The position numbers and the translations under genes are program-made. A DNA stretch of 64,000 nucleotides from a virus (Duplodnaviria; Heunggongvirae; Uroviricota; Caudoviricetes): the IMG/VR virus record IMGVR_UViG_3300013902_000006; one strand, 5' to 3'. The notes below the pieces were generated by a model. That model was not told where the DNA came from. It ran no database searches and was given only the letters and a program-made list of their open reading frames with translations. Below are positions 34,308-56,100 of the stretch, piece by piece. Position 1 is the first letter of the stretch; every line of letters begins with the position of its first letter.

Positions 34308-35015
34308 TTGCATATGTCAAAAACAATTAAATGGGAATATATAAAGGGACTAGATCAGTATTTTGCTGATATAAAACACTTTAAGTCTCTCTCTCGTAAA
34401 GAAGAGAGAGAACTTGGTGTGCGTATAAAACAAGGTGACAAAGATGCCTTGAATAAATTGGTTCAACATAATCTTAAGTTCGTTGTTTCAATGGCGAAAA
34501 AATATCGTGATAAGGGTGTTCCATTTGAAGACTTAATATCCGAGGGCAACTTAGGACTTTATCACGCAGCCGAGAAATATGATGGTAGTCGTGAGACACG
34601 TTTTATTACTTATGCCGTATGGTGGATTAAAAATTCATTCAATGAGTGTATCAAGAGGAATGATAGAATCAATGAGATGGATATTGATGATTTCTTATGG
34701 GGTAAAAATAAAAGTGATACTTTTAGAACTGAAATAATAAATGAAAGATTCGAGGAACAGTTAAATGACATACAGAGTCGAAATGCAAGCATCAATGAAT
34801 TGATGGAATGTCTACAAGAACGTGAACGAAAAGTAGTTGCAATGTTCTTCGGTCTCGATGGAAAAAAGGAAATGAATCTTGATGAAATTGGACAAGATAT
34901 GAATTTATCAATGGAAAGGATAAGACAAATAAAAGATGTCGCCCTTATAAAATTAAAGACCAATGTATTGTTGATGAACAGTGATGAAATCCAAGAACTG
35001 AGAGAATTGCGTTAA
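34308..35015 (+). CDS. Sigma-70 family RNA polymerase sigma factor (regions 2 and 4)
   Basis: DLISEGNLGLYHAAEKYDGSRETRFITYAVWWIKNSF is a region 2.2-2.4 match. LDEIGQDMNLSMERIRQIKDVALIKLK is a region 4.2 HTH match. Confidence 0.75.
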   Translation: MHMSKTIKWEYIKGLDQYFADIKHFKSLSRKEERELGVRIKQGDKDALNKLVQHNLKFVVSMAKKYRDKGVPFEDLISEGNLGLYHAAEKYDGSRETRFITYAVWWIKNSFNECIKRNDRINEMDIDDFLWGKNKSDTFRTEIINERFEEQLNDIQSRNASINELMECLQERERKVVAMFFGLDGKKEMNLDEIGQDMNLSMERIRQIKDVALIKLKTNVLLMNSDEIQELRELR

Positions 35016-36242: not shown

Positions 36243-37430
36243 ATGGATAATGTAATGGATAAGATAAAAGCCTACCTTTCGCAAAATAAGAAAATGGGTT
36301 TCGCCTTAAGGGATTGGCTTATAAGGAATGGATATAACTACACATTGAAGGAGGCGTTGATATGTATTTATAATGCAGCAGACGGAAAATCAAGTGTAAT
36401 GAATGACATTATAGAGCATTTGACAGAAAAAAGGAAAATTTATGGTAGGACACAGGTATATGCCGATAATAACACCCCTTTGATCGGTTTACGTAGAAAC
36501 GAGCAAGGTGAAGTTGAGTTATATGGTTATAGACCCAATATGCCCTTAAATCCTAAGGGACAACATATGTCAAGGAACAATAAGATATTCCGTAAATCAG
36601 ATGATCAAGTCAGCAAGACATATCAGAATTCAGAAGAAAAAATGTATGAGTTGGGACGACAAGTAAGAGATATGTTTCCTGATTGTAGTAATCACGACAT
36701 CACTTTCATAATGCAAGCGATAAAGAAATATGCTGAAAGTCATAAGATTCATACTGATAAGGTATTGAATATGATGAGAAAGGGAAGATTGGAATACAAT
36801 GAACCTTTAAATAGATTAGTTCCTCACGTGAGAGAAGGTAGACAAGGAAGAACCATTATGATAGACGAGGCCGTCATGATGGAAATCGCAGACGATGCGA
36901 ATATGACGGAATACAAGTTTAACTCAAACATTAAGCATTTCTTGCACGACTTATTGGTAAATCCATCTGGTGCGAAAATGCCTTTTATTTTTAAGATAAA
37001 TGGCGTCAATCGTAATAGGATGATATATTTCTTAAAGAAATTTGGCTTACTTAAGAAAATCGAAAGGATTTCTGACAAGGATAACGAAGGGAAACCTAAG
37101 AAAGCCACGATGATGGTAAAATATCAAGTTCCAAAAAAAGATTTCGATAGGAAATTAAAGAAATTATTTATACGTCTATTCGAGGACAACTGTAGTGAGG
37201 TTAATAATATCACAGAGGATGGAGAAGGTGCAACCACTTGTGATGCTTCATCGGGACAATTTTCGCAGCCATTGTTCCCATTACAGAGAGGTAAAATGTA
37301 TCATATGGACGAAGATACCACTTGTGACAGCGTAGGTGATTATCAATACGATGTACCATTTGCGGGCGATGATGAGACTTTGAAACGAAATAATGGCGTT
37401 GGAGGTTCAAATTCAATAAATTTCGCATAA
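36243..37430 (+). CDS. Hypothetical protein
   Basis: 395-aa ORF whose stop lies inside a 62-bp tandem duplication. Confidence 0.45.
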   Translation: MDNVMDKIKAYLSQNKKMGFALRDWLIRNGYNYTLKEALICIYNAADGKSSVMNDIIEHLTEKRKIYGRTQVYADNNTPLIGLRRNEQGEVELYGYRPNMPLNPKGQHMSRNNKIFRKSDDQVSKTYQNSEEKMYELGRQVRDMFPDCSNHDITFIMQAIKKYAESHKIHTDKVLNMMRKGRLEYNEPLNRLVPHVREGRQGRTIMIDEAVMMEIADDANMTEYKFNSNIKHFLHDLLVNPSGAKMPFIFKINGVNRNRMIYFLKKFGLLKKIERISDKDNEGKPKKATMMVKYQVPKKDFDRKLKKLFIRLFEDNCSEVNNITEDGEGATTCDASSGQFSQPLFPLQRGKMYHMDEDTTCDSVGDYQYDVPFAGDDETLKRNNGVGGSNSINFA

Positions 37431-37544
37431 TAAAGTAACAATTAGGACTATTTATGTATATAGAAAATGATGATAGCCGTGATTTCGCATAATAAAGTAA
37501 CAATTAGGACTATTTATGTATATAGAAAATGATGATAGCCGTGA
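37421..37544 (+). repeat. Perfect tandem duplication, 2 x 62 bp
   Basis: tttcgcataataaagtaacaattaggactatttatgtatatagaaaatgatgatagccgtga repeated head-to-tail. Copy 1 carries the stop of the upstream gene. Copy 2 carries the ATG of a 55-aa ORF (37516..37683). Confidence 0.85.
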
Positions 37545-37880: not shown

Positions 37881-37934
37881 AAGAAATAAAAACTAAGTAA
37901 AATCATAATTTTTCTTAGAATTTTATATACGGTA
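37881..37934 (+). repeat. 54-bp exact direct repeat, copy 1 (copy 2 at 40458..40511)
   Basis: aagaaataaaaactaagtaaaatcataatttttcttagaattttatatacggta is identical at both positions. The repeat pair brackets the tRNA island and two ORFs. Confidence 0.9.
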
Positions 37935-38016
37935 CTCAAGTGGTTTAAGAGGACGGTCTTGAAAATCGTTAGCACTGTGATGAATGGTGGCGTGAGTCCG
38001 AATCTCACCCCCTCCG
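37935..38016 (+). pseudogene. 5'-truncated tRNA-Ser(TGA)-like pseudo-tRNA
   Basis: D-arm CTC/AAGTGGTTTAA/GAG, anticodon arm ACGGT-CTTGAAA-ATCGT, a long variable arm and T-arm GTGAG-TCCGAAT-CTCAC parallel E. coli tRNA-Ser. The 3' acceptor strand CCCCTCC has no complementary 5' strand. The body starts exactly at the end of repeat copy 1. Confidence 0.4.
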
Positions 38017-38025
38017 CAACCGAAT

Positions 38026-38113
38026 GGAAGACTAACCCTGATGGTGATGGGGGCATCCTGCTAAGATGTTTCGTTCGAGAAATTCGAATGTGGTTCGATT
38101 CCACAGTCTTCCT
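38026..38113 (+). tRNA. tRNA-Ser (anticodon GCT), type II
   Basis: Manual cloverleaf: acceptor GGAAGAC/GTCTTCC, D-stem CCC/GGG, anticodon stem GCATC/GATGT, loop CTGCTAA, variable arm TTCGA-GAAAT-TCGAA, T-arm TGTGG-TTCGATT-CCACA. No encoded CCA. Confidence 0.7.
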
Positions 38114-38398
38114 CAATTCAAAAGGTAGTATAGTTCAGTGGCAAAACACCCAAATCACAGGGATAAGAGATATGTCCAAATTGCGATTCACAATTAGATA
38201 CATATAAGTCTAAAAATAAAAATAGCAACAGAAATTATTATCGATTTCATAAATGATAATTTTTGACCTACGTCAAATAATCTATATAAAATGTGTGCGA
38301 ACACAATATTTTTAATATAATGTTTATATTTATTATTGAATAGAGAAAACCATATGATATGACTAAGCGAGATAATAAATAATATACCTATTAATTAA

Positions 38399-38881: not shown

Positions 38882-38954
38882 GTTTGATTCGCCCAGTTGG
38901 TAGGGCATTATTTTATGGTAATAACTGTCATCGGTTCGAGTCCGATATTAAACT
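38882..38954 (+). tRNA. tRNA with anticodon loop TTATGGT (apparent anticodon ATG, formally His)
   Basis: Acceptor GTTTGAT/ATTAAAC (one G-U), D-arm GCCC-AGTTGGTA-GGGC, anticodon stem TTATT/AATAA, T-arm ATCGG-TTCGAGT-CCGAT, 73 nt. A34 in the anticodon is unusual. Confidence 0.5.
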
Positions 38955-39656: not shown

Positions 39657-40421
39657 TTGCATTATAAAATACATATTATGAAAGAAAAAGTAGACATATC
39701 ACAGCAAGTAGGTATTACAGAGAGTGGGGAAATTGCTTTCAATCTTGAAGCTTTCGATAATTTGCGTAATGCCAATATTATTATAACGAAGAGACTAACT
39801 GACAAACTGATTGAAAAGTTAGTAGAGAATAAAGACAAGATAATTCTTCATCTTACGTGTACGGGAATGGGTGGAACGAAAATTGAACCATTCGTTCCGA
39901 CTGCGGATGCCACATATACAAAATTCAAGAAATTAATTAATGATGGATTTCCAATAAGTCACGTTGTATTACGTATAGATCCGATTGTTCCAACTGAGAA
40001 AGGTGTTAATACAGCAATTAAGGTATTGGAAACTTTTGCCCCAATGAAAATCGAACGTGTGAGGATATCAATACTCGATATGTATAAGCATGTTAAAGAA
40101 AGATTTAATGAAAAAGGAATTCCATTGCCTTTTGAGGATTTCCATTCGCCATTATCACTGAGGAAATCAATCTACGATATTTTTTATGATTATTCAGATA
40201 AATATGAGTTTTATTTGGAAGTATGTGGTGAACCTGGAATTGAGAGCGTCCCTTGTCTTTCGCAAAGGGATATAGATATTCTTGGACTAAGTGATAAAAT
40301 AAAATTAGTAGGTAGCGCAAAACAAAGGAAATCATGCGGATGCCCGGCAAATAAACATGAGATATTGAAAGATAAACCTCATCAGTGTAATAATGGTTGC
40401 CTTTATTGTTTTTGGAAATAA
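39657..40421 (+). CDS. Hypothetical protein with a C-terminal Cys cluster (CGCP...C..GC.YC)
   Basis: 254-aa ORF preceded by a TAATTTTG -7 box at 39645..39652. The conserved-looking Cys cluster suggests metal or Fe-S binding. Confidence 0.45.
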   Translation: MHYKIHIMKEKVDISQQVGITESGEIAFNLEAFDNLRNANIIITKRLTDKLIEKLVENKDKIILHLTCTGMGGTKIEPFVPTADATYTKFKKLINDGFPISHVVLRIDPIVPTEKGVNTAIKVLETFAPMKIERVRISILDMYKHVKERFNEKGIPLPFEDFHSPLSLRKSIYDIFYDYSDKYEFYLEVCGEPGIESVPCLSQRDIDILGLSDKIKLVGSAKQRKSCGCPANKHEILKDKPHQCNNGCLYCFWK

Positions 40422-40457: not shown

Positions 40458-40511
40458 CCAGACGGAGAAGAAATAAAAACTAAGTAAAATCATAATTTTT
40501 CTTAGAATTTT
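40458..40511 (+). repeat. 54-bp exact direct repeat, copy 2
   Basis: Identical to 37881..37934 and lies 78 nt upstream of the FtsH-like gene. Confidence 0.9.
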
Positions 40512-40588
40512 ATATACGGTAAGAAGTACAAATAGTAAAGTATTAAAGAAGTAGAATAAAGTATAACAATTTTAATATTTTTAATAAC

Positions 40589-42697
40589 GTGGTGAATATT
40601 GATATTGATGATATACGTAAGAAGAATAAAATAATAGATAATGCGATTATCGCATTAAAAAAGAAATATATCGGTGTTGATGAACAAATCGACGAGATTA
40701 TGAATAATGTAAGGACGTGGTACTGTTATCCACAATTACAGTCTCGCCCTTGTGTCGTGAATTTATGGGGAATGAGTGGATGTTCTAAGACAGATTCTGT
40801 TCGTACAATTGCTAAGTTACTTAATCTTGAGGAAGATTTGATTTATTTTAATTTCGCAGACATTAATGAAAAAAATGCGTGGGAAATTGAGACCGACATT
40901 GAAGAAAACATAGGTAACAACAAGAGCAATCGCATTATTGTGTATGACGAATTTCAATATGCTGCAACTCTTGACAAGAAAAAGGAGGAGAAGGACAACA
41001 AGGGTGCTTTGAAACCATTTTGGGAATTGTTGGATACTGGTATTCTTCATAAGAAGACTGAGGTAAGCACTTTATTCGATGTTTATAAGATATATCTTGT
41101 ATTGAAGCGAATAATGGACAGTAATTATCCTATTAAGTTAGTCGACGGAAAGTGGCTTAACAGTAAGGGTTATATTGATAACACCAATGCCTATGAGAAA
41201 CGTGCAATAATGGATGTATTTGCACAGAATGATCAGCCTTGTTTTAAAAAGTATGATATGAATGGAGGAGATAGCATATCTTCAGAAGAAATATATTATA
41301 GTAATGACAAAACTGATTATGTTGAATTTAACCCTTGGTTGATAGATCGGGTAATTAGCATATACAATAATATTAATGGAAGTAAATATAAGTCTGACAA
41401 CGTTGAGATAAAGGAGAAGTTATATTCAATGTCCATTGATGAAATGATAAAGTTCTTTTTTGACCTTTATCATTCCGCATGTAAAGGTTATGACCTTAAT
41501 TTCAAGAATAGTCTTGTTTTTGTTATAGGTAATCTTGATGAGGCTTATGACGTAAGTTTCAATGTTAATCCCGATATGTCGCCTGATCAATTCCATAAGA
41601 TGACGAAGAAAATCAGTGTCGTTGATATTAAGGAAGCATTGAAGGAGAGATTCCGTAATGAACAAATCGCAAGGCTTGGCAACATTCATGTAATTTATCC
41701 GTCGTTCTCAAGCAAGACATTCAAGGGAATAATTCAAATGCAATTGGATAATTATTCCAAGGAGGTCAAAGAGAAAATCGGATGTGATATACGGTATGAT
41801 TCCTCAATTAACAAGATTATATATAAGGAAGGTGTATTCCCGACACATGGTACAAGACCTGTATTCTCAAGCATTCAAGAAATCGTCAAGTCAAGACTGC
41901 CTGAAGTAATAAAGCATCTTACCGAGATGAAACTGATACAAAGTTTAGACAGTTTGGAGTATTCGTATTCAAATGGCTATGTTAAGATGAAAGCGTATAA
42001 TATTGATGGTAATCTATTGTCTTCAATTAAGACAAAACTCAAATTGAGAATTGATAATCTTAGGAAATCAAGTCTAGATGATAAACAGGCATTATGTGCC
42101 GTACATGAAAGCGGGCATTTTGTCGTGTATACAAAAGTATACGGGAATGTACCTGCCAAGTTAATCTCAATGGCAACTGAGAGTGGAACAGGTGGTTTCT
42201 TGCAGCAAGACGATGATGAAGACGATAAGGCGATGAAGACATATGATTATTATTTTAATAACATCAAGATAGCTCTTGGAGGGTACGTCGCTGAGGAGGT
42301 AGTCTTTGGAAACAGTAAACGTACAAGTGGTGCGATATCAGATTTGAGGAAAGCGACTGCTATTGCGAGTAGAATGATGTTGGAAATGGGAATGGACAAG
42401 CCTATTGTTAAGAGTAACATGTTAGACCTTGAATCGCAGTATTTAATTGTCGACGATAAAAGGAAAGATATAAACGACAAGGTATCAGCAATAATTGGCA
42501 AGGCGTTGGATGAAGTTAAGGAATTGCTTAATGATGCTGATTATAGGGTAATGTTAAAAAAATCATCTGATTACTTGGCTACTCATTCTGAAATGCCGAG
42601 AAACAAGATGAAAGAATTTTTTTCGGTAATACCAAATTGTAAGAGAACTGTCATTAATGACAGATTTTACAGGAATGCCTTGAAAAATTTTAAATAA
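40589..42697 (+). CDS. P-loop ATPase fused to an FtsH-type (M41) zinc metallopeptidase domain; soluble, with no TM segments
   Basis: N-terminal deviant Walker A GMSGCSKT and Walker B IIVYDEF. The C-terminus aligns with the E. coli FtsH protease domain: HESGHF versus HEAGHA; KLISMATESGTGGFL versus KVTIIPRGRALGVTFF; LGGYVAEEVVFG..TSGAISDLRKATAIASRMMLEMGM versus [37 protein letters not shown]. Confidence 0.65.
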   Translation: MVNIDIDDIRKKNKIIDNAIIALKKKYIGVDEQIDEIMNNVRTWYCYPQLQSRPCVVNLWGMSGCSKTDSVRTIAKLLNLEEDLIYFNFADINEKNAWEIETDIEENIGNNKSNRIIVYDEFQYAATLDKKKEEKDNKGALKPFWELLDTGILHKKTEVSTLFDVYKIYLVLKRIMDSNYPIKLVDGKWLNSKGYIDNTNAYEKRAIMDVFAQNDQPCFKKYDMNGGDSISSEEIYYSNDKTDYVEFNPWLIDRVISIYNNINGSKYKSDNVEIKEKLYSMSIDEMIKFFFDLYHSACKGYDLNFKNSLVFVIGNLDEAYDVSFNVNPDMSPDQFHKMTKKISVVDIKEALKERFRNEQIARLGNIHVIYPSFSSKTFKGIIQMQLDNYSKEVKEKIGCDIRYDSSINKIIYKEGVFPTHGTRPVFSSIQEIVKSRLPEVIKHLTEMKLIQSLDSLEYSYSNGYVKMKAYNIDGNLLSSIKTKLKLRIDNLRKSSLDDKQALCAVHESGHFVVYTKVYGNVPAKLISMATESGTGGFLQQDDDEDDKAMKTYDYYFNNIKIALGGYVAEEVVFGNSKRTSGAISDLRKATAIASRMMLEMGMDKPIVKSNMLDLESQYLIVDDKRKDINDKVSAIIGKALDEVKELLNDADYRVMLKKSSDYLATHSEMPRNKMKEFFSVIPNCKRTVINDRFYRNALKNFK

Positions 42698-42701
42698 TGA
42701 C

Positions 42702-42716
42702 TGACAATTAGTCAGA
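42702..42716 (+). terminator. Short hairpin CTGAC-AATTA-GTCAG after the FtsH-like gene
   Basis: 5-bp inverted repeat immediately after the stop. Confidence 0.25.
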
Positions 42717-42773
42717 TAATGTTTATAGGCATAAAAATTGTGTTAAGAATAAATTAGATAAAAAGTTTTAATT

Positions 42774-43247
42774 ATGGCAATTGATTTTATTGACAAAATG
42801 GTTAGTGACAGTGTCCTTGGAGATGAATTTTTCAAGGCTTTGGACGAAGTGACAAAAAACATCCAGACAAACGTTCATACCGTTTGTGAGAAATGGAAGA
42901 ATGGCGAGTTGATATCCAAGGATGAGGAGAAGTATGAGAATGGTAAGAAAACATTGGATGTTCATCAGTCAAAGAACATCGAGGTAGAAGATAAAGATGA
43001 AGATAAAGGTTGCGTTTCTTCTAATTCTTGTAACTGTAACGGTACTTGCAATAAATGTAAGTGTGCTAATGCAGATGAAGAAATCAATTCTTTGATAGAG
43101 AAAAACAAGTCATTGACAAACGCATATGAAGAAATGCAGCGAGCAAATAGCGACTTGTATCATCAAAAGGCAGCACTTGAAAATGAAAATGCGGCATTAA
43201 AAGAAAAGTTGAATAGATTTAAGAAATTATTTGAAAACGAATTCTAA
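42774..43247 (+). CDS. Cys-rich/coiled-coil protein
   Basis: CVSSNSCNCNGTCNKCKC cluster followed by a heptad-like C-terminus (LENENAALKEKLNRFKKL). Confidence 0.4.
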   Translation: MAIDFIDKMVSDSVLGDEFFKALDEVTKNIQTNVHTVCEKWKNGELISKDEEKYENGKKTLDVHQSKNIEVEDKDEDKGCVSSNSCNCNGTCNKCKCANADEEINSLIEKNKSLTNAYEEMQRANSDLYHQKAALENENAALKEKLNRFKKLFENEF

Positions 43248-43373
43248 TTTATTTAACGTATAAATTTTATTTCCTGTTATAGGTAAAGACAAATATAAAT
43301 CAATAATTAAGTCTTTACCTATTTTTTTTATTATTTTTAACAATTAAAATTTGCTTCTGACGATTTAATTTTG

Positions 43374-43381
43374 TACCTTTG
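43374..43381 (+). promoter_or_regulatory. -7 box TACCTTTG(CA) upstream of dnaJ
   Basis: TAnnTTTG match 21 nt before the ATG. The same TACCTTTGCA decamer recurs at 49156, 56101 and 62524. Confidence 0.45.
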
Positions 43382-43401
43382 CAACAATAAATGGTAGAAC
43401 G

Positions 43402-44529
43402 ATGAAGAAAGATTATTATAAAATATTAGGATTGTCAGATTCTGATAAAAAACTTGATAATGACAGTTTTTCTAAGGCATTGAAAAAGGCATACCGTAAA
43501 TTATGTCTTAAATATCATCCTGATAAGTTTGCTTCCAAGTCTGACGAGGAAAAGAAACAAGCTGAGGATAAATTCAAGGAAATTACTGAAGCATATTCGG
43601 TGTTGAATGATACTGAGAAACGTAAAAGATATGATATGTATGGCTCTGTCGATGGTAACGGTTATGACAGTTATGAGGGAGACAGTGACATTGATGAGAT
43701 ATTACGTCGTTACGCAAACGCAGCGAATCCTTTCAATGATCCTTTTGGCGAAAGCGGAGGTTTTCGACAAGGTAGCACGAAACAACGAGGAAGCGATAAA
43801 AGGCTTAAAATAAACATCACTTTAAAGGAACTTTATGAGGGAGGAACTAAGAAGATTAATTTTAAATTGAAACAAGCTTGTCCTCAATGTGGTGGAAGTG
43901 GTCTTGGAAAGTATGGCAAATACAATGATTGCCCCTTCTGTAATGGAACAGGTGTCGAAGTTGAGAGACGTGTGATGCCAGGTGGATACTTTGAAACTCG
44001 TCACGAATGTTCTCATTGTGGAGGAACAGGTAAGACTGTCGTAAACGGCTGTTCTCATTGTGGAGGAACAGGTGTCGTAGAAAATACCATTACAATGAAC
44101 ATTGACATACCGTTTGTTACTGATTGCAACAAGGAATACGTAAAACGAGGCAGTGGTAATATGGGGCAGCATAACGGTATCAGTGGTGATCTATATCTTA
44201 CTTATAATATTACGAATGATGTCGATAATTTCTATCTTAGTAGTGATTCTCCTTTCGACATTATTAAACACGAAGATGTTAAATTAATCGATTGTTTGTT
44301 AGGATGTGACATCGACATCGTTCACATCAATGGTAAGAAGGTCAAATGCCACGTGAACAAATGTACGCCTAATAACAACTTTATCACTATAAAAGGCGAA
44401 GGTTTGCCTAAGCCTAACGGTAACAGGGGCGACCTTAAGGTTGTCATAAGACAGCAATTTCCATCAGAATTAAATAATGATGAGATAAAACTATTGACCA
44501 AATTAAAGAAATCAAATAATTTTAAGTAA
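43402..44529 (+). CDS. dnaJ: DnaJ-like co-chaperone (J domain + four CxxCxGxG zinc-finger repeats)
   Basis: DYYKILGL...YRKLCLKYHPDK J-domain with HPD. CPQCGGSG, CPFCNGTG, CSHCGGTG and CSHCGGTG repeats. Confidence 0.8.
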   Translation: MKKDYYKILGLSDSDKKLDNDSFSKALKKAYRKLCLKYHPDKFASKSDEEKKQAEDKFKEITEAYSVLNDTEKRKRYDMYGSVDGNGYDSYEGDSDIDEILRRYANAANPFNDPFGESGGFRQGSTKQRGSDKRLKINITLKELYEGGTKKINFKLKQACPQCGGSGLGKYGKYNDCPFCNGTGVEVERRVMPGGYFETRHECSHCGGTGKTVVNGCSHCGGTGVVENTITMNIDIPFVTDCNKEYVKRGSGNMGQHNGISGDLYLTYNITNDVDNFYLSSDSPFDIIKHEDVKLIDCLLGCDIDIVHINGKKVKCHVNKCTPNNNFITIKGEGLPKPNGNRGDLKVVIRQQFPSELNNDEIKLLTKLKKSNNFK

Positions 44530-44978
44530 TGAATTATAGTGCAGGAATTATACCATATCGAGTAAATGATGATGGTGAAATGGAATTTTTCGTAGGACAT
44601 CCTGGTGGTAATCATTGGAATAGTCGCTATTTGTGGATGTTCTTGAAGGGTGGTGTCGAAGGCAATGAGAATTGGTCTCAAACTGCGGTGCGAGAATTTG
44701 AGGAAGAGACAGGTTTGACCCTTACCGATGAAATGGTCAAGAGTTTGATACCATTGGGTAGCGTATTACAAAATAGTCATAAGACTACGATTGCATTCGG
44801 ATTACATTATCCTGATATTGATCCGAATACTTGCCATTCGAATTTGACAGACGACGGCAGTTGTTATGAGATTGATAGTTATCGTTGGATGACGTATGAT
44901 AAACTTAAGGAAGTCACACACAAGACACATCTCGGCTTCTATGACCAATTAATTACTTTGAATAATGCAACTTATTAA
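44529..44978 (+). CDS. Nudix hydrolase
   Basis: Nudix box GGVEGNENWSQTAVREFEEETGL (GX5EX7REUXEEXGU). Confidence 0.7.
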   Translation: MNYSAGIIPYRVNDDGEMEFFVGHPGGNHWNSRYLWMFLKGGVEGNENWSQTAVREFEEETGLTLTDEMVKSLIPLGSVLQNSHKTTIAFGLHYPDIDPNTCHSNLTDDGSCYEIDSYRWMTYDKLKEVTHKTHLGFYDQLITLNNATY

Positions 44979-45573
44979 GGATAAAGACCCTATTTTCTTT
45001 ACGGATGAATATGATGTTGTCTTGTTGGGAACATCTACAGCTTGTTCGCTCGCAAGTGGTTTTCAAGGAAAAATGGCAAGAAAATACCCATATGTCGATG
45101 AAGCGAATGACAAACAACCGTATCGTGATAATCGAAGACTTGGTAAACGTTTGACGTTGAAACAAGAAGGCAAGCCGACAATATCATTGATGTATATTAG
45201 TAAGTATAATGATAGTCGTAACGTGACTATCGACTATGAGGCGTTGACAAATTGTTTGACTACAGCAAATGCCGAATTCAAGGGAAAGAAAGTTATTACA
45301 ACAATTGTTGGGGCTACAAAAGTTGACGGCAATGGCGAACGTGACAAATGTCTTAAAATCTTGGAGGAATGTACGAAAGATCTTGATATTGACGTTTACG
45401 ATTATGAGCAACTTACATATTCGGAAGAATGTGCAAAAGTACTTAGACCGTTGACTGACAAATGGATAAAGGAGAACGTGAAAACGACAAAACAGCAAAG
45501 AATCGAGGAGAGAAAAAAAATATTGGAAAAGAATTATCTTAATAAAGTTTATTATGGCGGTGAAACCTACTAA
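44965..45573 (+). CDS. Hypothetical protein
   Basis: 202-aa ORF. Confidence 0.4.
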   Translation: MQLIKDKDPIFFTDEYDVVLLGTSTACSLASGFQGKMARKYPYVDEANDKQPYRDNRRLGKRLTLKQEGKPTISLMYISKYNDSRNVTIDYEALTNCLTTANAEFKGKKVITTIVGATKVDGNGERDKCLKILEECTKDLDIDVYDYEQLTYSEECAKVLRPLTDKWIKENVKTTKQQRIEERKKILEKNYLNKVYYGGETY

Positions 45574-46111
45574 TACAAGAAGCAATAAAAAATTAGACTA
45601 TAAGATTAACGAGGACATTCGTAATTATGATACTGTACGTGTAATCTATAAAGAACACAGTTCAGAGACGAGCGAGAATGATTTTAACCAAGTAATGTCC
45701 TTGTCCGAGGCAAAAAAGATATCAAGAGAAATGTCCCTTGACCTTATTGAAATCAATTCATCTGCGAATCCTCCTATTCTCAGATTGTGCGATTATTCCA
45801 AGTTCATATGGGAGCAGAAGAAAAGAGAGAAATCTCGTAACAAAAACACCACGACATTGAAGGAAATTCAATTGAAGGCAAATATCGCTGATAATGATTT
45901 GGAGACCAAGGCTCGGGCTGCATTGAAGTTTCTTGAAAATGGTTTTAAAGTAAAGGTCGTATTGACATTGCGAGGCCGTGAGAATGCAAGAAAAGAGTAT
46001 TCAAAGGGGGTATTTTATCGTTTTCTTGAACTTGTCGGTGATAATGCCGTATTTGAATTGAAACCTAAGGATGAAGGCAATAAGACCATTACGATAATTA
46101 GGAAAAAATAA
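45554..46111 (+). CDS. infC: Translation initiation factor IF-3 homolog
   Basis: N-domain VRVIYKEH...MSLSEAKKISREMSLDLIEINSSANPPILRLCDYSKFIWEQKK aligns with bacterial IF3 (VRLI...EAL.LA...[26 protein letters not shown]). C-domain KVKVVLTLRGRENARKEYS aligns with KAKITLRFRGREMAHQQ. Confidence 0.8.
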   Translation: MAVKPTNTRSNKKLDYKINEDIRNYDTVRVIYKEHSSETSENDFNQVMSLSEAKKISREMSLDLIEINSSANPPILRLCDYSKFIWEQKKREKSRNKNTTTLKEIQLKANIADNDLETKARAALKFLENGFKVKVVLTLRGRENARKEYSKGVFYRFLELVGDNAVFELKPKDEGNKTITIIRKK

Positions 46112-46128
46112 TTAAACACTTATGATAC

Positions 46129-46992
46129 ATGATTGTTGACTGTAAAACTCATAGTGGAAGATACATTAACTATACGGGGATAACTGAGGCATACATCAGA
46201 GATATAAGAAACTATGATGTAATAAGTCCTCAGGAACAGAAGAAACTTTTAAGATTAGCCCATAGTACCGACAATCAGGTTAAGCAGGAGGCAATAAATA
46301 AATTAATTCAATGTAATCAACGTTTTATTATATCATTTGCGAAGAAGTGGTCTCAAGGGAGTAATTTACTCGATATAGTAAACGAGGCAAATTTAGGCTT
46401 GTTGGAAGCAATCGAGAAATTTGATATTAATAGTAATAACAATTTTCTTACATATGCAGTATGGTGGATAAGGAAATACGTCAAGGATTATCATAATAGC
46501 TATGATAATATCGTAAAACGTCCCAATGCCAATAAACATAATTTGTATGTACCTAAAGCTAGGAGGTGGTTTGAAAACAAATATGATAGAGAACCCACCA
46601 ATGATGAATTGTTAGAAATCTTACGTAAGAAGTATAATTACCAAATTAGTGACCCAAGCGACCTTGATGAATTAAGACCTTATTCAATAGAAAATGATAA
46701 TGATGACAATGAATTAAATCTCTGTGAGACCGATAGACTTTTTAATGAAAAGACGGCTACTGATAATGTTAGTGATGGTATAAACAATGAATACACCAAA
46801 AGTTTTGTCGATTTTCTTTTAAGTAAGTTAGACGAAACAGAAAGAAATGTCATTACCAAGAATTATGGGATAGGTTGTCTCCCAAAGACAGTTGAGTCCA
46901 TTGCAGATGAAATGAACGTACCATCGTATAAGGTGAGAAGTATCTTAAAAAAAACACATAATAAATTAAAAAATTATGAAAATTTCAATTAA
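46129..46992 (+). CDS. Second sigma-70 family sigma factor (regions 2 and 4)
   Basis: DIVNEANLGLLEAIEKFDINSNNNFLTYAVWWIRKYV is a region 2 match. TVESIADEMNVPSYKVRSILKKTHNKLK is a region 4.2 match. Confidence 0.7.
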   Translation: MIVDCKTHSGRYINYTGITEAYIRDIRNYDVISPQEQKKLLRLAHSTDNQVKQEAINKLIQCNQRFIISFAKKWSQGSNLLDIVNEANLGLLEAIEKFDINSNNNFLTYAVWWIRKYVKDYHNSYDNIVKRPNANKHNLYVPKARRWFENKYDREPTNDELLEILRKKYNYQISDPSDLDELRPYSIENDNDDNELNLCETDRLFNEKTATDNVSDGINNEYTKSFVDFLLSKLDETERNVITKNYGIGCLPKTVESIADEMNVPSYKVRSILKKTHNKLKNYENFN

Positions 46993-49192: not shown

Positions 49193-50017
49193 ATGAGAAA
49201 AATTCTAATGTTTATGACACTATTGTTGGTGTCAATTTTAGGTTTCACCTCTTGTCATAGTGTATCACCAGATGCTGATGAGGAAGCCGTAATGGTGAAG
49301 AAACCTTGGTTCTTCGGTCACGGTGGTGTAGAGAAGGATGCTGTTCAGACAGGACTTACTTGGTGTTGGTGGTCAACAAGTGGCTATTATTTCAAAATTG
49401 TCCCAGTTCGTCATGAAATTGCCTTGGATGATTTGTTCAGTGACGATAATACACCTCTTGATTTCCACACGGTAATTATTACACAGATTGAGCAAGGTAA
49501 GTCACCAATTCTTTTGCAAAACTATGGCGAGAATTGGTTCGATACGAATCTCAACAATTATTTCTGTAACCTTGTTCGAGACCATATTTCACAACATAGT
49601 CCATTCGATTTGATGTCAAATCGTGCAGTACTTAATGATATTGACAATAAGATACGTCAGCAGATGCAGAATTATGTCGCAGCCTTGTCTAAAAAGAAGG
49701 AAATGCCTGTTATTATCAAGGAGGTTATCATTGGTAAGGCAACACCGAATAAAGAGCAGCTTAACGAAATGAATCGCACCGCAAAGGTGGTACAAGCAAA
49801 ACAGACACAAGAGCGTGAATATGAGGTACAGATCGCTCGTGAGAAAGCTGAGAGACAGAAGGCGAAGGCTGATAAGGCGTATATGGAGGAAATGAATCTT
49901 TCTGCTGGACAATTCATTAATTTGAAATGGATTGAGACCGTTGCCAATAAGCAAGGCGCAAACATCGATGTTCTTGTAGGAGGAGGAAGTGACCCGATTT
50001 GGAATATTAAACGATAA
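49193..50017 (+). CDS. Lipoprotein (lipobox LGFTSC) with an SPFH/band-7-like C-terminal region
   Basis: Signal peptide MRKILMFMTLLLVSILGFTSC. Charged helical C-terminus QAKQTQEREYEVQIAREKAERQKAKADKA resembles HflK/C-type SPFH proteins. Local GC content is noticeably higher than in flanking phage genes. Confidence 0.5.
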   Translation: MRKILMFMTLLLVSILGFTSCHSVSPDADEEAVMVKKPWFFGHGGVEKDAVQTGLTWCWWSTSGYYFKIVPVRHEIALDDLFSDDNTPLDFHTVIITQIEQGKSPILLQNYGENWFDTNLNNYFCNLVRDHISQHSPFDLMSNRAVLNDIDNKIRQQMQNYVAALSKKKEMPVIIKEVIIGKATPNKEQLNEMNRTAKVVQAKQTQEREYEVQIAREKAERQKAKADKAYMEEMNLSAGQFINLKWIETVANKQGANIDVLVGGGSDPIWNIKR

Positions 50018-50052
50018 ATTATTTTAAACTTAAATAAATTAAATTTTAAAAA

Positions 50053-51153
50053 ATGAAAAAGTTTATTTTTATGATTATGGCTGCCTTGTGCAGCATCGTG
50101 ACGGCCTCAGCACAGTCACAGAGTAATTACAGTGGAAGTTCAAAGTTTTTTGATAACACATCAGTAGGTGTTGTCGGTGGCGTAGAAACCAACCTTCACG
50201 ATTGGAATGCCCCACAGGGTGCTGTCGCAGGAATCCTTTTGAATAAGGAGATTACCCCTATTTTTGGTGTAACACTTGAGGGTAATACAAACATCAACGG
50301 TCTCCGAAATTGGGAGAGTAAGGCATCCCATTCTTGTGGCGCAAAGGTATTTGATGCCTTTAGTGTTTATCTTACACCACGAGTAAATTTGTCGAATGCA
50401 TTGTTCGGTTATAAGGTCAATTCTCGAAAGTTTGAAGTTGAAGCTCTCGCAGGTCTTGGTTACGGAGCTTTCCTATACGACAATACTCATAATGCATTGC
50501 TTGCCAAAGCGGGACTCAATTTCAATTATAATCTGAGTAAGGCATTTACTGTAATGCTTCGTCCTGCGGTTATTTATGATTTGTCGGCAACTAATGTGAA
50601 GTTTGACTCACGTAGTGCTGTCGCACAACTGACAGTAGGTGTCACATATCATTTTAAGACCTCAAATGGCACACGTTCATTTAATAAGGCAAAGCTTTAT
50701 AATCAGTCTGAAATTGACGCTCTTAATGCAAAGATTGCTGACTTGCAGTCAAGCCTCGAAGCAGCAAATAAGGTGGCTAAGACAAATGCAATCAATACAG
50801 TAGATACTGTCTATGTAGAGAGTTCATCTTCATTGGGCAATGTTGTATCATTCAAACTTAATAGTTCAAAGGTCGATGAAACACAGATGGCAAATCTTGA
50901 CAATGCAGTACGTATGTTGAAGGAGAATACTGACTTGAAAGTTACTTTGAAGGGCTATGCTGATAAGAATACTGGTAGCGCATCCTATAACAAGAGATTG
51001 TCAGTTCGCCGTGCTGAGGCTGTGAAGAAGGTTATTGTTAATAAGTATGGCATCGATCCTGACCGTATCGATGTGCTTGGTGTTGGTGATACTGAGCAGC
51101 TTTATTCAGATAACAATTGGAATCGTGTTGTAATTTTTGTTGAGAACAAGTAA
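50053..51153 (+). CDS. OmpA-family outer-membrane protein (signal peptide + C-terminal OmpA peptidoglycan-binding domain)
   Basis: Signal MKKFIFMIMAALCSIVTASAQ. C-terminus VTLKGYADKNTGSASYNKRLSVRRAEAVKKVIV...DRIDVLGVGDTEQ matches the OmpA_C motif. Higher GC than the surroundings. Confidence 0.75.
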   Translation: MKKFIFMIMAALCSIVTASAQSQSNYSGSSKFFDNTSVGVVGGVETNLHDWNAPQGAVAGILLNKEITPIFGVTLEGNTNINGLRNWESKASHSCGAKVFDAFSVYLTPRVNLSNALFGYKVNSRKFEVEALAGLGYGAFLYDNTHNALLAKAGLNFNYNLSKAFTVMLRPAVIYDLSATNVKFDSRSAVAQLTVGVTYHFKTSNGTRSFNKAKLYNQSEIDALNAKIADLQSSLEAANKVAKTNAINTVDTVYVESSSSLGNVVSFKLNSSKVDETQMANLDNAVRMLKENTDLKVTLKGYADKNTGSASYNKRLSVRRAEAVKKVIVNKYGIDPDRIDVLGVGDTEQLYSDNNWNRVVIFVENK

Positions 51154-51179
51154 ATGAACGTATCTAATTAAATTTAATT

Positions 51180-51225
51180 CTTACCATAATGTTGTTACAT
51201 TACAATATTTTGGTAAGAATTTTCT
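51180..51225 (+). terminator. Compound hairpin TTCTTACCA...TGGTAAGAA after the ompA-like gene
   Basis: 9-bp inverted repeat enclosing a second small palindrome. T-rich downstream. Confidence 0.4.
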
Positions 51226-51242
51226 TTTTAAAATAATGTATA

Positions 51243-51626
51243 ATGGCTGAAATAATAAGATATTGTTTAACAAGTGAGGAGCATGATGGTGAAAATGTTT
51301 TTAAAGTTTGCCGTCCTAATATAATGGGGAATCCATTCACATTTCTTCCTAAAAGTAAATCTAAGTTTAAAAATTTAATAAAGGTAAAAACAAGGGATGA
51401 AGCAATTGATCTGTATGAACCTTATTTCGATGTGATGATAAAGAAAGACAAGAGATTTAAGGAAGAATGGGATAAAATGTTCAATGCGTATCTTAAATAT
51501 GACACCGTATATATTGGATGTTTTTGCGGGAAGGGAGAAAGATGCCACGGTGACATAATAGCCAAGAAGTTAAAACAAAGGGCAATCAAGCAAATGCTCA
51601 AGAATTTGGATATCATGAAAGATTAA
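51243..51626 (+). CDS. DUF4326-like protein (CxC...CHGD motif)
   Basis: CFCGKGERCHGDIIAKKL resembles the conserved C..C..CHgDvL core of DUF4326 phage proteins. Confidence 0.35.
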   Translation: MAEIIRYCLTSEEHDGENVFKVCRPNIMGNPFTFLPKSKSKFKNLIKVKTRDEAIDLYEPYFDVMIKKDKRFKEEWDKMFNAYLKYDTVYIGCFCGKGERCHGDIIAKKLKQRAIKQMLKNLDIMKD

Positions 51627-51946
51627 CGTAAATTTTTACAAAAGAAAGGATTATCTTTTAAAGAATATATCATATTTTCGTAATATTTGCAGGTAGTCGA
51701 AAAGTTATCGACATCAGTTTGCGACAATTCAAACCATTCGTTCATTATTCTGCAATGTCTGAAATGATTATGAATCAATGTTTCCATTCGATACATATAA
51801 TCTGTTGTGTATGTTCCTTTGACAGTCAAAATAGAGGAATTACCTGTCTGTAAATTTTTCAGCCTTTTATCGACGCTATTCTTAGTAATCCCGATTTTAT
51901 ACCTTTCGTTTTCCTCGTCAAATATCAAGTAAATATTCCCTCTCAT
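51623..51946 (-). CDS. GIY-YIG superfamily (T5orf172/MUG113-type) small nuclease-like protein
   Basis: NIYLIFDEENERYKIGITKNSVDKRLKNLQTGN matches the T5orf172 pattern (IY.I.....YKIG.T....RL..L.TGN). Lone minus-strand gene. Confidence 0.5.
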   Translation of the reverse strand: MRGNIYLIFDEENERYKIGITKNSVDKRLKNLQTGNSSILTVKGTYTTDYMYRMETLIHNHFRHCRIMNEWFELSQTDVDNFSTTCKYYENMIYSLKDNPFFCKNLR

Positions 51947-52045
51947 AAGTTAAATTATCTTCTTACCTTAATATAGGTCTTAATATTATACATTTCAATT
52001 AAGAACCTTTAACTATTAATATTTGGTAATAATAAAATATATTAG

Positions 52046-52053
52046 TATCTTTG
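52046..52053 (+). promoter_or_regulatory. -7 box TATCTTTG(CA)
   Basis: TAnnTTTG match 31 nt upstream of a 57-aa ORF. Confidence 0.4.
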
Positions 52054-52084
52054 CATACATAAAGGAATAATTTATTAAATATTA

Positions 52085-52258
52085 ATTAAAACTATGGATA
52101 GTAAAGATTTACAAAAACTAACCGATGCCATCAAGGGGAATACCAAGGCATTGGAGAAATACACTTCGTTAGTCGATAAGCAGAATCAAAAGATAGATGC
52201 TTTGACTATTGCCATCAGTGAGTTGAAGACAACAATTAAAGGTAATCCAAACGATTAA
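52085..52258 (+). CDS. Small coiled-coil protein (57 aa, below the ORF-track cutoff)
   Basis: ORF encoding MDSKDLQKLTDAIKGNTKALEKYTSLVDKQNQKIDALTIAISELKTTIKGNPND with a canonical promoter upstream. Confidence 0.3.
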   Translation: MKTMDSKDLQKLTDAIKGNTKALEKYTSLVDKQNQKIDALTIAISELKTTIKGNPND

Positions 52259-52270
52259 TAAAATAAAATA

Positions 52271-52477
52271 ATGGACAAGAAATTTTGTGCTATACACCGT
52301 CTTTATTATCAAGGTCATGAGTGTCCTTTGTGTCTTAGTGAACGAGTAAGTTATTATGACCGTAAGTATAACGGTAAAACCGAGGATGTCAAAGAGAAGA
52401 AGTCATCCAAGAAAGTAGACAGAGAGATTAATAAAGACGATATTTCTAAATTAATGGAAAAATTCAATAAAAAGTAA
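52271..52477 (+). CDS. Small zinc-ribbon protein (C..H....C..C)
   Basis: CAIHRLYYQGHECPLC motif. 68 aa, translationally coupled to the next gene. Confidence 0.35.
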   Translation: MDKKFCAIHRLYYQGHECPLCLSERVSYYDRKYNGKTEDVKEKKSSKKVDREINKDDISKLMEKFNKK

Positions 52478-53796
52478 TGAAAAAATATACATTTGAAGAT
52501 ATCAGAAAGAAGGGACTCCTTCTTTATGAGTTCGTGAGGGGTTCTGTTAGTCAGGGAATAAACACCCTTTCCTCAGATGAAGATCACGGTGGCGTATATA
52601 TGGCACCAGCGGAACAATTGTTAGGTCTTGGGTTTGACTATCAAGATGAAATAAAGGATGCCAAGGGTGATGACGACTGGATGGAACTCAATAAGTTTAT
52701 GCGACTATTGTTGAAGTCAAATCCGACTGTCTTGGAAAGTTTGTTTGTTGATGACAAGTATGTCCTATATGAGCATCCTATTATGACAGAAATTAAGAAA
52801 CATCGTAATGAATTTGTTACAAAGGAATGTTTTGATGCTTTTTTCGGCTACGCAAAATCACAGGTACACAAGGCACGAGGACTTAATAAAAAGATTGTTC
52901 AACCTATTGTAGAACGTAAGACAGTTCTTGATTTCTGTTATACATTTTATAAGCAAGGTAGCACAAAGATTGAAAATTGGCTTGACTATCGTGGTTTGAA
53001 ACAGAAATATTGTGGTCTTGTAAATATTCCTAATATGATAGAGACAATAGGAGTATATTATGATTGGGGTAATCATTTTCTTAATGAGAACATTCATATC
53101 GAGGAATTATACCGGGCATACGACAATATTGGTATATATTCAACGACCGATATCATAACAAAGATGAAAAAGACTACTGATGATGGTGAAAAATTAAAGT
53201 TAGAAGAAGACTTGAAAAAATGCCATATGTGTAATATGGTTGAATTCATAATGGATTTTTATCATCTTGACGATATGTTTGCTTTACGTGATTGGTATCA
53301 TGAACAAAGACCGATCGGTTATAAGGGTATTGTGAACGAAAAAGGTACATCTAATGAATTACGTCTATCATCGGTGGCAAAGGATGAGAAACCAGTGTGT
53401 TATATGACGTACAATAAGAATGCTTTTAGTAGCCATTGTAAAGATTACAAGGAATATAAAGATTGGGAGAAGAATCGTAATCCCGTCCGTTATGAAAGTA
53501 ATTTAAATAAGAACTATGACGCAAAGAATATGGCCCATAGTTTTCGTTTAGTTAATATGGGTATCGAAATTGCAAAGGGTGAAGGTGTTAAAGTCGATAG
53601 GATGAATATTGACCGTGATTTTCTTTTGGCAATCCGTAAACATCAATATGAATATGATGAATTAATTAACAAATTAGAGGAAAAGGTAAAGGAAATGGAT
53701 GAAGCTGTTAAGCGAACATCTCTTCCTGATAAAATTGATATAAATAGAGTCAATGACTTACTTCTTCAGATACGTAAAAAGCAATTACATTTATGA
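52477..53796 (+). CDS. Pol-beta superfamily nucleotidyltransferase of unknown specificity
   Basis: RGSVSQGINTLSSDEDHGGVY fits the minimal NTase motif GS-x(9-13)-DhDh. Translationally coupled to the CCA-adding enzyme. Confidence 0.45.
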   Translation: MKKYTFEDIRKKGLLLYEFVRGSVSQGINTLSSDEDHGGVYMAPAEQLLGLGFDYQDEIKDAKGDDDWMELNKFMRLLLKSNPTVLESLFVDDKYVLYEHPIMTEIKKHRNEFVTKECFDAFFGYAKSQVHKARGLNKKIVQPIVERKTVLDFCYTFYKQGSTKIENWLDYRGLKQKYCGLVNIPNMIETIGVYYDWGNHFLNENIHIEELYRAYDNIGIYSTTDIITKMKKTTDDGEKLKLEEDLKKCHMCNMVEFIMDFYHLDDMFALRDWYHEQRPIGYKGIVNEKGTSNELRLSSVAKDEKPVCYMTYNKNAFSSHCKDYKEYKDWEKNRNPVRYESNLNKNYDAKNMAHSFRLVNMGIEIAKGEGVKVDRMNIDRDFLLAIRKHQYEYDELINKLEEKVKEMDEAVKRTSLPDKIDINRVNDLLLQIRKKQLHL

Positions 53797-55181: not shown

Positions 55182-55378
55182 TTGGAAAAGAAAAAATAAA
55201 AGGATTACATTATATATTGGAAAAATTTCGGCTGATGAAATGTAAGGGGATTCGCCCTTTGAGTACAGCTCTTCATGAAGATGTAAGTTATGGCAATAAG
55301 GAAGAAGATTGAAAAGCCGACAGGAAATGACAAAGAAATGCAATATTCAAATAATCGATAATTTTTAATAAAACGGAT

Positions 55379-55840
55379 ATGATAAATAACAAGATTGATG
55401 AAATGATTGCGTCAGCACTCAAAAATAGAGAGACTGACTTGTTAAATGTCTTGAAATTAATCAAGACCGAATTCGTTAATGCAATACATAATAAAGTCGA
55501 ATTGGATGAAGCAAATGAAGTAAAGATACTTCTTAAGATGGCTTCACAGAGAGAAGATTCCATTCAACAGTACATTAAGGGAGGAAGAAACGACTTGGCA
55601 GAGTTGGAGAAGAAAGAACTTGAGATAATAAAATCATATACCCCTAAGCAAGCATCCGATGAGGAGATAGCTGAGTATACAAGTGGCGTTATAACTGCGT
55701 ACATTGTTTCAAAAGGAGAAGGTTATATTCTTTCAATGAAAGATATGAAACCTATTATGGCATCCGTTAAGGAAAAGTACCCTAATGCGAACGGAAAGGT
55801 TGTTTCTATGACTTTGAATAAAGTAATCAATAATAAGTAA
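55379..55840 (+). CDS. YqeY/GatB-domain protein
   Basis: Aligns along its length with E. coli YqeY (ALKNRETDLLNVLKLIKTEFVN..QREDSIQQYIKGGRNDLAELEKKELEIIKSYTP versus [55 protein letters not shown]). Confidence 0.6.
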   Translation: MINNKIDEMIASALKNRETDLLNVLKLIKTEFVNAIHNKVELDEANEVKILLKMASQREDSIQQYIKGGRNDLAELEKKELEIIKSYTPKQASDEEIAEYTSGVITAYIVSKGEGYILSMKDMKPIMASVKEKYPNANGKVVSMTLNKVINNK

Positions 55841-55847
55841 GAGTAAT

Positions 55848-56057
55848 ATGGAAGACAGAGTATATCCTTATTTAGGAAGGAACAAGATAGATGGTAAAGA
55901 CATCGTTGTATTGTTCACTGATGAAGACTGCGGTGTCGTCGTAATGAGTGAGTTCGACAAGGGAAGTAAGTTCGCCTTTGGAAAGTATCTTGAAAATTTT
56001 GCTGAGGAGCAGTTTGAGGTTTTACCTCCTGATTTGCAAGTAAGCCTCAGCAATTAA
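55848..56057 (+). CDS. Hypothetical small protein
   Basis: 69-aa ORF. Confidence 0.3.
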   Translation: MEDRVYPYLGRNKIDGKDIVVLFTDEDCGVVVMSEFDKGSKFAFGKYLENFAEEQFEVLPPDLQVSLSN

Positions 56058-56095: not shown

Positions 56096-56100
56096 ATTCG

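Follow-up and report, generated by a model that had tools for sequence, protein, structure and literature searches.

A predicted soluble protease joining an Hsp100-NBD2-type motor to an FtsH-type zinc peptidase in huge phages and Bacteroidota

The AAA+ proteases of bacteria are usually counted as a few well-studied families, namely ClpXP, ClpAP/CP, HslUV, Lon and FtsH. Here we describe a gene carried on a 64,000-nucleotide stretch of DNA from a tailed phage of the Caudoviricetes (IMG/VR record IMGVR_UViG_3300013902_000006; this whole stretch is called the window below). The 702-residue product is predicted to be a soluble single-chain fusion of a motor of the Hsp100 NBD2 (second nucleotide-binding domain) type with an FtsH-type zinc peptidase. 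Compared with FtsH and its i-AAA and m-AAA relatives (MEROPS M41; NCBIfam TIGR01241), the window protein is without transmembrane (TM) helices and a periplasmic domain, its motor falls in the HCLR clade (Hsp100 NBD2 type) rather than in the classic AAA clade to which the FtsH motor belongs, and it has gained a helical insertion of ~165 amino acids (aa) and a beta linker. The FtsH equivalog model TIGR01241 accordingly gives it 68.6 bits against a cutoff of 600, in a match limited to aa 497-654.

With the NBD2 of the Hsp100/Clp proteins (ClpB, Hsp104, the D2 of ClpC, ClpE and ClpA, and CLPB/Skd3) it has in common the helix before Walker A, Walker A and B, sensor-1, the 'FRxE...R' Arg-finger segment, the 'G(A/T)RP' sensor-2 and the D2-small lid, and Skd3 resembles it further in having a single NBD2-type ring and no NBD1. 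Unlike the Hsp100/Clp proteins in general, it is devoid of the GYVG pore loop 1, NBD1, the N-domain, the M-domain and the IGF/LGF tripeptide, and has instead a large insertion before sensor-1 and a fused peptidase of its own. The closest functional analogue is Lon (LonA/LonB), likewise a soluble single-chain combination of an HCLR motor and a peptidase, but the Lon peptidase is a Ser-Lys dyad enzyme (S16) whereas that of the window protein is a zinc M41 domain, the N-terminal and inserted domains differ, and the motor is nearer to Clp NBD2 than to Lon. The features of the gene are as follows, with residue conservation, here and below, counted over an alignment of 137 relatives.

40589..42697, + strand: protease gene, an open reading frame (ORF) of 702 aa with a GTG start; predicted AAA+ (Hsp100-NBD2 type)/M41 peptidase fusion
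40589..40993, + strand: N-terminal NBD2 signature helix and first part of the AAA+ large subdomain, placed by profile alignment
40769..40792, + strand: Walker A GMSGCSKT, aa 61-68; Gly66->Ser is lineage-specific
40931..40951, + strand: Walker B RIIVYDE, aa 115-121; D120 invariant, E121 in 136/137
40994..41488, + strand: family-specific, mostly helical insertion, aa ~136-300 (~165 aa), before the strand leading to sensor-1
41513..41542, + strand: sensor-1 strand LVFVIGNLDE; N315 invariant
41648..41683, + strand: Arg-finger segment RFRNEQIARLGN; R356 and R362 conserved
41714..41926, + strand: AAA+ lid (ClpB_D2-small, Pfam PF10431), including sensor-2 GTRP at aa 421-424
41927..42073, + strand: three-stranded beta linker from motor to peptidase, aa ~447-495; strands at 455-461, 464-470 and 476-483 in the AlphaFold2 (AF2) model
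42083..42541, + strand: Peptidase_M41 core, aa 499-651, Pfam PF01434
42104..42118, + strand: HESGH zinc-binding/catalytic motif, aa 506-510; H506, E507 and H510 invariant
42341..42343, + strand: D585 in SGAISDL, invariant, aligned to the Asp of FtsH 'SGAANDI'

The peptidase half is matched by the Pfam Peptidase_M41 model (PF01434) over aa 499-651 with an E-value of 5.7e-21 and 75.7 bits, against a gathering cutoff of 29.9, and phmmer comparison with proteins of known structure recovered FtsH and YME1 with E-values down to 3e-10. The HExxH signature occurs once in the protein, as HESGH at aa 506-510, and is followed by LGGYVAEEVVFG at aa 563-574 and SGAISDLRKAT at aa 580-590. The Asp of the FtsH motif to which D585 corresponds serves there as the third zinc ligand; H506, E507, H510 and D585 are unchanged in 137/137 of the aligned relatives. 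The AF2 monomer model of the entire 702-aa protein, computed from an input alignment of 137 sequences, has a pLDDT of 92.6 and a pTM of 0.89, and the M41 fold together with its C-terminal helices closely resembles the ring-forming protease domain of FtsH. Given the invariance of these four residues, the profile match and the confident model, the M41 domain looks catalytically competent, unlike the FtsHi pseudo-proteases. We also considered an inactive, FtsHi-like pseudo-protease, and rejected it because the catalytic residues are invariant. A preliminary description of this DNA had proposed an FtsH-type protease domain, and the profile match, the single HExxH, the motifs at aa 563-590 and the FtsH fold bear this out.

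The same description held the protein to be soluble and free of the TM segments of FtsH. No TM segment was found in the window protein, its top Kyte-Doolittle 19-residue mean being 0.84, and an N-terminal hydrophobic anchor is absent across the family, where the hydrophobic maxima are confined to the core helices of the M41 domain. The 'hydrophobic segments' of some relatives were evaluated as candidate TM helices and dismissed, since these segments belong to the M41 core, being its HExxH and LGG-AEE helices.

When the ATPase half (aa 1-490) was used as a profile, it recovered solely NBD2 domains of Hsp100/Clp proteins, with ClpE as the best match (1.7e-15) and Hsp104, ClpB, ClpC, Skd3 and ClpA after it, and matched no FtsH AAA domain in the PDB. 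ClpE, Hsp104 and ClpB NBD2 were aligned at profile positions 10-97, which cover the NBD2-specific helix before Walker A; this signature helix (aa ~10-46) contains 'LKKKYIGVDEQIDEI', the counterpart of ClpB 'VVGQDEAV'. Further along, phmmer aligned aa 285-441 with the NBD2 of ClpC and ClpB, and the lid model PF10431 matched aa 376-440 with an E-value of 2.8e-6 and a score of 27.7 bits, above its cutoff of 21.9. The classic-clade AAA model of Pfam (PF00004) reached 19 bits, below its cutoff of 21.2. A comparison of the ATPase half with individual motors gave values of 23.9 for human CLPB/Skd3, 22.8 for ClpA, 21.6 for ClpB NBD2, 20.7 for ClpX, 18.4 for HslU and 13.1 for the i-AAA ATPase domain (classic clade). 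These matches identify the ATPase as an ordinary AAA+ motor of the Hsp100/Clp NBD2 type (HCLR clade), and not as an FtsH AAA domain. The latter point had been anticipated in the preliminary description, which had also correctly located GMSGCSKT (aa 61-68) and a Walker B with DE (IIVYDE, aa 116-121); its label of a 'non-canonical P-loop ATPase' has to be replaced, as the module is of a regular type and 135/137 of the relatives have the pattern GxxGxGK[ST].

The family consensus of Walker A is G[LM]TG[VC]GK[TS], and only the window protein and its 72-96% identical relatives replace the Gly that precedes the Walker A Lys by Ser. K67, D120, N315, R362, G421 and R423 are invariant, while 90% or more of the relatives retain E121 and the Arg finger R356; the segment RFRNEQIARLGN is read as corresponding to ClpB 'FRPEFLNRID'. 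Going by these residues, the motor appears to hold a complete set of ATP-hydrolysis residues and is predicted to be hydrolysis-competent. Comparison of the window gene with one 96%-identical relative, in which ATG replaces GTG at the start codon, yielded a ratio of nonsynonymous to synonymous substitution rates (dN/dS) of 0.079 over the whole gene, with 0.078 in the ATPase part and 0.064 in the M41 domain; the protease gene is kept under purifying selection. As this comparison lies within the lineage with the Gly->Ser change in the P-loop, its value of 0.078 indicates that the motor is under selection despite that change. The possibility of an ATPase killed by the Gly->Ser replacement was rejected on the same ground, together with the retention of the other catalytic residues.

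The part of the motor that would handle substrate departs from the Hsp100 pattern. The canonical aromatic pore loop 1 (GYVG), expected in the stretch from Walker A to Walker B, is missing; only a short, acidic segment separates strand 2 from Walker B, and the hidden Markov model alignment to ClpE and Hsp104 ends before pore loop 1. The insertion, which contains a low-confidence loop at aa ~214-244, has no similarity to the ClpB M-domain. We read, by eye rather than by a tool alignment, the WELLDTG helix just before it as equivalent to ClpB 'LLQVLDDG' and 'GYDLNFKNSLVFVIGN' just after it as equivalent to ClpB 'GRTVDFRNTVVIMTSN', and by that reading the insertion would lie where motors of the HCLR clade have their pre-sensor-1 hairpin. 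The protein contains no [ILMV]G[FL] tripeptide, that is, no IGF/LGF loop of the kind by which ClpA, ClpC, ClpE and ClpX dock to ClpP, which is consistent with its having its own peptidase.

An exhaustive HMMER search over 1.84 billion representatives clustered at 50% identity returned 3570 matches, 825 of them at E<=1e-30, and among the best 150 matches nearly all are 650-720 aa long and matched end to end. The fusion architecture thus defines a large uncharacterised family in the Bacteroidota/FCB group and in several clades of huge phages; it comprises 825 or more clusters at the 50% identity level, mostly from Bacteroidota chromosomes and from these phages. The preliminary description had presented it as a new architecture: the distinction from FtsH stands, but the size of the family shows that it is not peculiar to this phage. 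In the contigs of GTDB, sampled as one genome per species, there are at least 487 loci with relatives, nearly all from Bacteroidota, Ignavibacteria or Kapabacteria, with Dysgonomonas, Bizionia, Ohtaekwangia, Mongoliitalea and Brumimicrobium among the cultured carriers. IMG/VR contributes 199 loci, mostly on contigs of 100-520 kb, and relatives 72% identical to the window protein lie on contigs of 180-365 kb. Databases name these proteins generically ('ClpA/ClpB-like protein', 'AAA family ATPase', 'hypothetical protein' or, at JGI, 'cell division protease FtsH'). Clustering at ~34% identity places the bacterial members in two groups and the phage members in three large phage-only groups, one of which includes the window protein; this separation implies that the phage copies are old lineages and not recent captures. 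In the papers searched we found no account of a TM-less fusion of a Clp-type motor with M41, nor of a protease partner for RtcB-PrfH or in RtcB operons; surveys of RNA-repair systems may have mentioned the family before.

Gene neighbourhoods, tabulated for 79 bacterial and 83 phage loci, point to functions in chaperone action, translation and RNA repair rather than to the attack on host regulators or defence proteins that the preliminary description had put forward. In bacteria an RtcB RNA ligase (PF01139) is encoded directly upstream on the same strand in 19/79 loci, with a PrfH-like protein of the RF-1 domain type between it and the protease gene in ten of the 79; the 2'-phosphotransferase Tpt1/KptA directly follows the protease gene in 6/79, and an RNA_ligase (PF09414) with an HD/AAA_33 kinase-like gene occurs in 4/79. 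A transcription regulator with WYL and WCX domains adjoins the protease gene at 40 of the 79 loci, DUF2779 is found at nine, and some members of the family are stand-alone genes. The operon of Dysgonomonas alginatilytica encodes, with gaps of 2-42 bp, RtcB, the RF-1 protein, a 196-aa HExxH protein, the protease and Tpt1. This 196-aa protein, which lies between the PrfH-like and AAA+-M41 genes of several loci (L163 6395-6985; also L015, L035 and L042), has an HExxH-like motif, 'LHELGHHHD', and no Pfam match in the Dysgonomonas-type operons; its motif makes it a candidate for a further component resembling a small metallopeptidase. The bacterial members are hence co-operonic with known RNA-repair systems (RtcB2-PrfH, Tpt1/KptA, RNA ligase, RlaP), whereas the phage copy is not beside RtcB or PrfH and has RlaP, a CCA-adding enzyme and a Band-7 protein nearby. 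RtcB2-PrfH repairs ribosomes cleaved by colicin E3 (PMC9223846, PMC13166195), and RlaP has been linked to RNA repair (PMC12776372).

The window has a low G+C content (~34%) and nearly all of its genes are on the + strand. It further encodes a baseplate J-like protein, a DnaB-like helicase, NrdD, a GH108 lysin, sigma factors and a BACON-domain protein, a gene content from which we conclude that it derives from a phage, probably of a Bacteroidota host; its source is a huge gut phage. Among GenBank phages, megablast found no match to 20 kb of the window and tblastn of the protein found one weak partial match; the window phage is without a close sequenced and annotated relative. The neighbours of the protease gene that bear on its function are listed here.

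39657..40421, + strand: DUF1848 protein, the upstream neighbour; 5 phage groups share this adjacency, bacteria do not
42774..43247, + strand: small Cys-rich coiled-coil protein (157 aa), encoded after the protease gene and before dnaJ, kept in close phage relatives
43402..44529, + strand: full-length type-I DnaJ with J domain, CXXCXGXG zinc fingers and C-terminal domain
44529..46992, + strand: conserved downstream block of NUDIX, a 202-aa 'phosphatase' PHROG, IF3 and a sigma-70-like factor
45554-46111: IF3, within the downstream block
49193-50017, + strand: Band-7/SPFH (+ OmpA-like)
52477-53796, + strand: RlaP nucleotidyltransferase ('RNA repair pathway' Pol-beta NTase)
53793-55181, + strand: CCA-adding enzyme with HD domain

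The order in the nearest phage clade is, with DUF1848 as an optional first member, the protease gene, the small coiled-coil protein, DnaK, DnaJ, NUDIX, the 202-aa protein, IF3 and the sigma factor. DnaK of the nearest phage groups is an Hsp70 (E 1.5e-199), and a full-length Hsp70/DnaK gene lies between the protease gene and dnaJ in most of the related phages (L084-L098 and L003; for example L090 10714-12645). DnaJ is encoded downstream of the protease gene in 9 phage groups; the preliminary description had likewise noted the DnaJ neighbour, which lies downstream in the window. The DUF1848 protein has a Cys-rich C-terminus and is matched by the PADLOC accessory model 'RTasDUF1848' (E 2.4e-22). 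Three tRNAs were called by ARAGORN upstream of the protease gene, and in one 72% identical relative (L001) Ro60/TROVE and ClpP are encoded a few kb upstream of it. Elsewhere in the window, positions 49193-58176 form an RNA-repair/translation cluster comprising Band-7, DUF4326, RlaP, the CCA-adding enzyme and an Fmt-like formyltransferase, to which IF3 and the three upstream tRNA calls add, and two genes of the sigma-70 family within 12 kb (34308-35015 and 46129-46992) flank the block of tRNAs, protease and DnaJ.

On the strength of the domain content and the gene neighbourhoods we favour, as a probable though by no means assured interpretation, a soluble ATP-dependent zinc metalloprotease, probably hexameric, that serves proteostasis under translation stress. 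By analogy with FtsH and Lon, the protein would form a ring, probably hexameric, in which the M41 domains keep the subunits together; the NBD2-type ring would bind and hydrolyse ATP and pass polypeptides on to the M41 sites for cleavage. Recognition of substrates or adaptors would fall to the inserted helical domain, and not to a GYVG pore loop, and this domain would thereby replace or supplement the handling of substrate by pore loops. Such an enzyme would remove proteins during translation stress or RNA-damage stress, its substrates being proteins that build up once translation has been impaired or has stalled, or else the very nucleases that cause the damage. Because of the bacterial RNA-repair operons under WYL regulators, and of the phage block of DnaK, DnaJ, NUDIX, IF3 and sigma factor, which the protease gene heads and which lies near tRNAs, RlaP, the CCA-adding enzyme, Band-7 and Fmt, we propose that the phage would bring its own chaperone-linked protease and with it sustain translation and proteostasis while the host cell is infected. 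What the analysis shows are the domain identities, the conserved catalytic residues, the solubility, the size of the family, the gene neighbourhoods and the purifying selection; the oligomeric state, the coupling of ATP to proteolysis, the substrates and the link to RNA damage are what we infer.

Several observations weigh against this interpretation. The position equivalent to the pore loop, residue 98, is W, Y or F in 65/137 relatives, so that processive threading is not assured, and Ser66 in place of the conserved Gly could weaken ATP binding. The lineage of the window (with L001, L002 and L083) has no DnaK gene in the interval 42697-43402, and none is present in the 64-kb window. RNA-repair genes stand beside the protease gene in only about a quarter of the bacterial loci, and within 8 kb of the phage genes RtcB and Tpt1 were each found at 1/83 loci. 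Defence islands, too, typically have WYL regulators, and the association of these regulators with the family leaves room for a defence role of the bacterial copies. A bolder version, possible but rather doubtful, would see in the family an unrecognised class of AAA+ protease that acts as the proteolytic arm of WYL-controlled RtcB-PrfH-Tpt1 rescue and was captured by huge Bacteroidota phages against RNA-targeting defences. If true, the family could rid damaged ribosomes of their nascent chains or of proteins bound to them, or could degrade the ribotoxin behind the attack, and huge Bacteroidota phages would have taken the protease along with DnaK/DnaJ, IF3, tRNAs, RlaP and the CCA-adding enzyme, so as to maintain translation.

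Other interpretations draw on the same observations. The enzyme might be a counter-defence or host-takeover protease that, instead of exerting quality control, selectively degrades host regulators or defence proteins, for instance RNA-targeting toxins such as anticodon nucleases. This would be in keeping with the retention of the gene, under strong purifying selection, by three or more clades of huge phages that contain phage members only, with neighbours that could buffer RNA-targeting defences (tRNAs, the CCA-adding enzyme, RlaP) and with the bacterial copies linked to RtcB-PrfH, a module that counters a ribotoxin (PMC9223846). However, the protease protein has no match to the defence or anti-defence models of PADLOC-DB v2, and most members of the family are bacterial chromosomal genes, which argues for a cellular function borrowed by phages; we regard such a role as unlikely. 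Nor do we give much credence to a general disaggregase-protease coupled to DnaK/DnaJ, which would have no link to RNA damage and would exert quality control during massive synthesis of virion proteins, its ClpB-like motor working with phage DnaK/DnaJ in the manner of ClpB but passing the polypeptides that it extracts to the fused M41 peptidase. The motor of the ClpB/Skd3 NBD2 type, the DnaK and DnaJ genes directly after the protease gene in the nearest phage groups and the DnaJ in the window are compatible with it, and the insertion could dock as the ClpB M-domain does. Yet the insertion is unlike that domain, the bacterial homologues are not beside dnaK/dnaJ but beside RtcB, PrfH, Tpt1 or WYL regulators, and in the lineage of the window, where the locus is devoid of DnaK, the protease is still under selection.

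A signal-activated, non-processive protease or defence effector, in which the AAA+ domain would be an ATP-dependent switch or sensor for site-specific cleavage by M41 and not an unfoldase, the bacterial copies would be single-gene stress or defence effectors under WYL control and the phage copies would be decoys or hijacked versions, could account for the missing canonical GYVG pore loop, the large insertion at the position of the pre-sensor-1 hairpin, the WYL+WCX regulators of the bacterial loci and the stand-alone genes. It appears very unlikely to us, as the residues for hydrolysis (Walker B Glu, sensor-1, Arg finger and sensor-2), and not only those for binding, are all conserved, the M41 fold with its C-terminal helices closely matches the ring-forming domain of FtsH, and PADLOC again offers no match. 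There is, finally, hardly any room for an annotation artefact, be it an FtsH with a missed TM N-terminus or a decaying pseudo-protease. The JGI name 'cell division protease FtsH' on some homologues might invite this interpretation, but a truncated or mis-started FtsH is refuted by the separate DUF1848 gene and the 167-nt spacer upstream, by the consistent length of the family (~670-720 aa, with full-length matches), by the equivalog score far below its cutoff and by the NBD2-type motor, while decay is at odds with invariant catalytic residues and a dN/dS of 0.08.

The spacer upstream of the protease gene contains a repeat that the preliminary description had rightly placed before the gene.

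40468..40521, + strand: 54-bp exact repeat, the copy upstream of the protease gene, in the 167-nt spacer; its twin is at 37881-37934

These are the only two copies in the window, where none is expected by chance, and the core of the repeat is absent from all 164 loci searched. In the 96%-identical relative a segment of ~140 nt that holds the upstream copy is missing (L165 1180-1320), and there the DUF1848 and protease genes are ~30 nt apart. This suggests that the 54-bp unit is an intergenic element whose duplication or insertion is recent; it might be a promoter or else a mobile element of small size. Abutting its first copy, Rfam reports a partial tRNA at 37931-38010 (model positions 6-65, 31.7 bits), while ARAGORN disagrees and predicts a tRNA-Ser(GCT) at 38026-38114, where Rfam reports none at the gathering score; the region 37931-38114 may be a degenerate or unusual tRNA pair. 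ARAGORN also predicts a tRNA-His with anticodon ATG at 38882-38954, and Rfam agrees on a tRNA there (52 bits); the anticodon of tRNA-His is normally GTG. Among other repeats of the window, a 62-nt unit is in perfect tandem duplication (100% identity) at 37420-37543, after a 395-aa ORF (36243-37430), and five direct repeats of ~130 nt (62-75% identity to the reference copy) form two clusters 51 kb apart (7346-7868 and 59033-59370), the first of which overlaps a 303-aa zinc-finger-like ORF (7323-8234). A 2166-aa ORF at 8237-14737, after the baseplate-J-like gene (4918-6966), may encode a tail fibre or virion protein.

The fusion described here would represent a natural motor swap, in which an FtsH-type peptidase is placed on a Clp/Hsp100-type motor without the membrane anchor and without the canonical pore loop. 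As such it bears on the modularity of the coupling between motors and peptidases, and it offers a soluble M41 system for mechanistic work. Judging by the operonic link to RtcB, PrfH and Tpt1, modules of RNA repair and ribosome rescue may have a proteolytic partner dedicated to them. The protease also strengthens the case that huge gut phages are equipped with toolkits of their own for proteostasis and the maintenance of translation.

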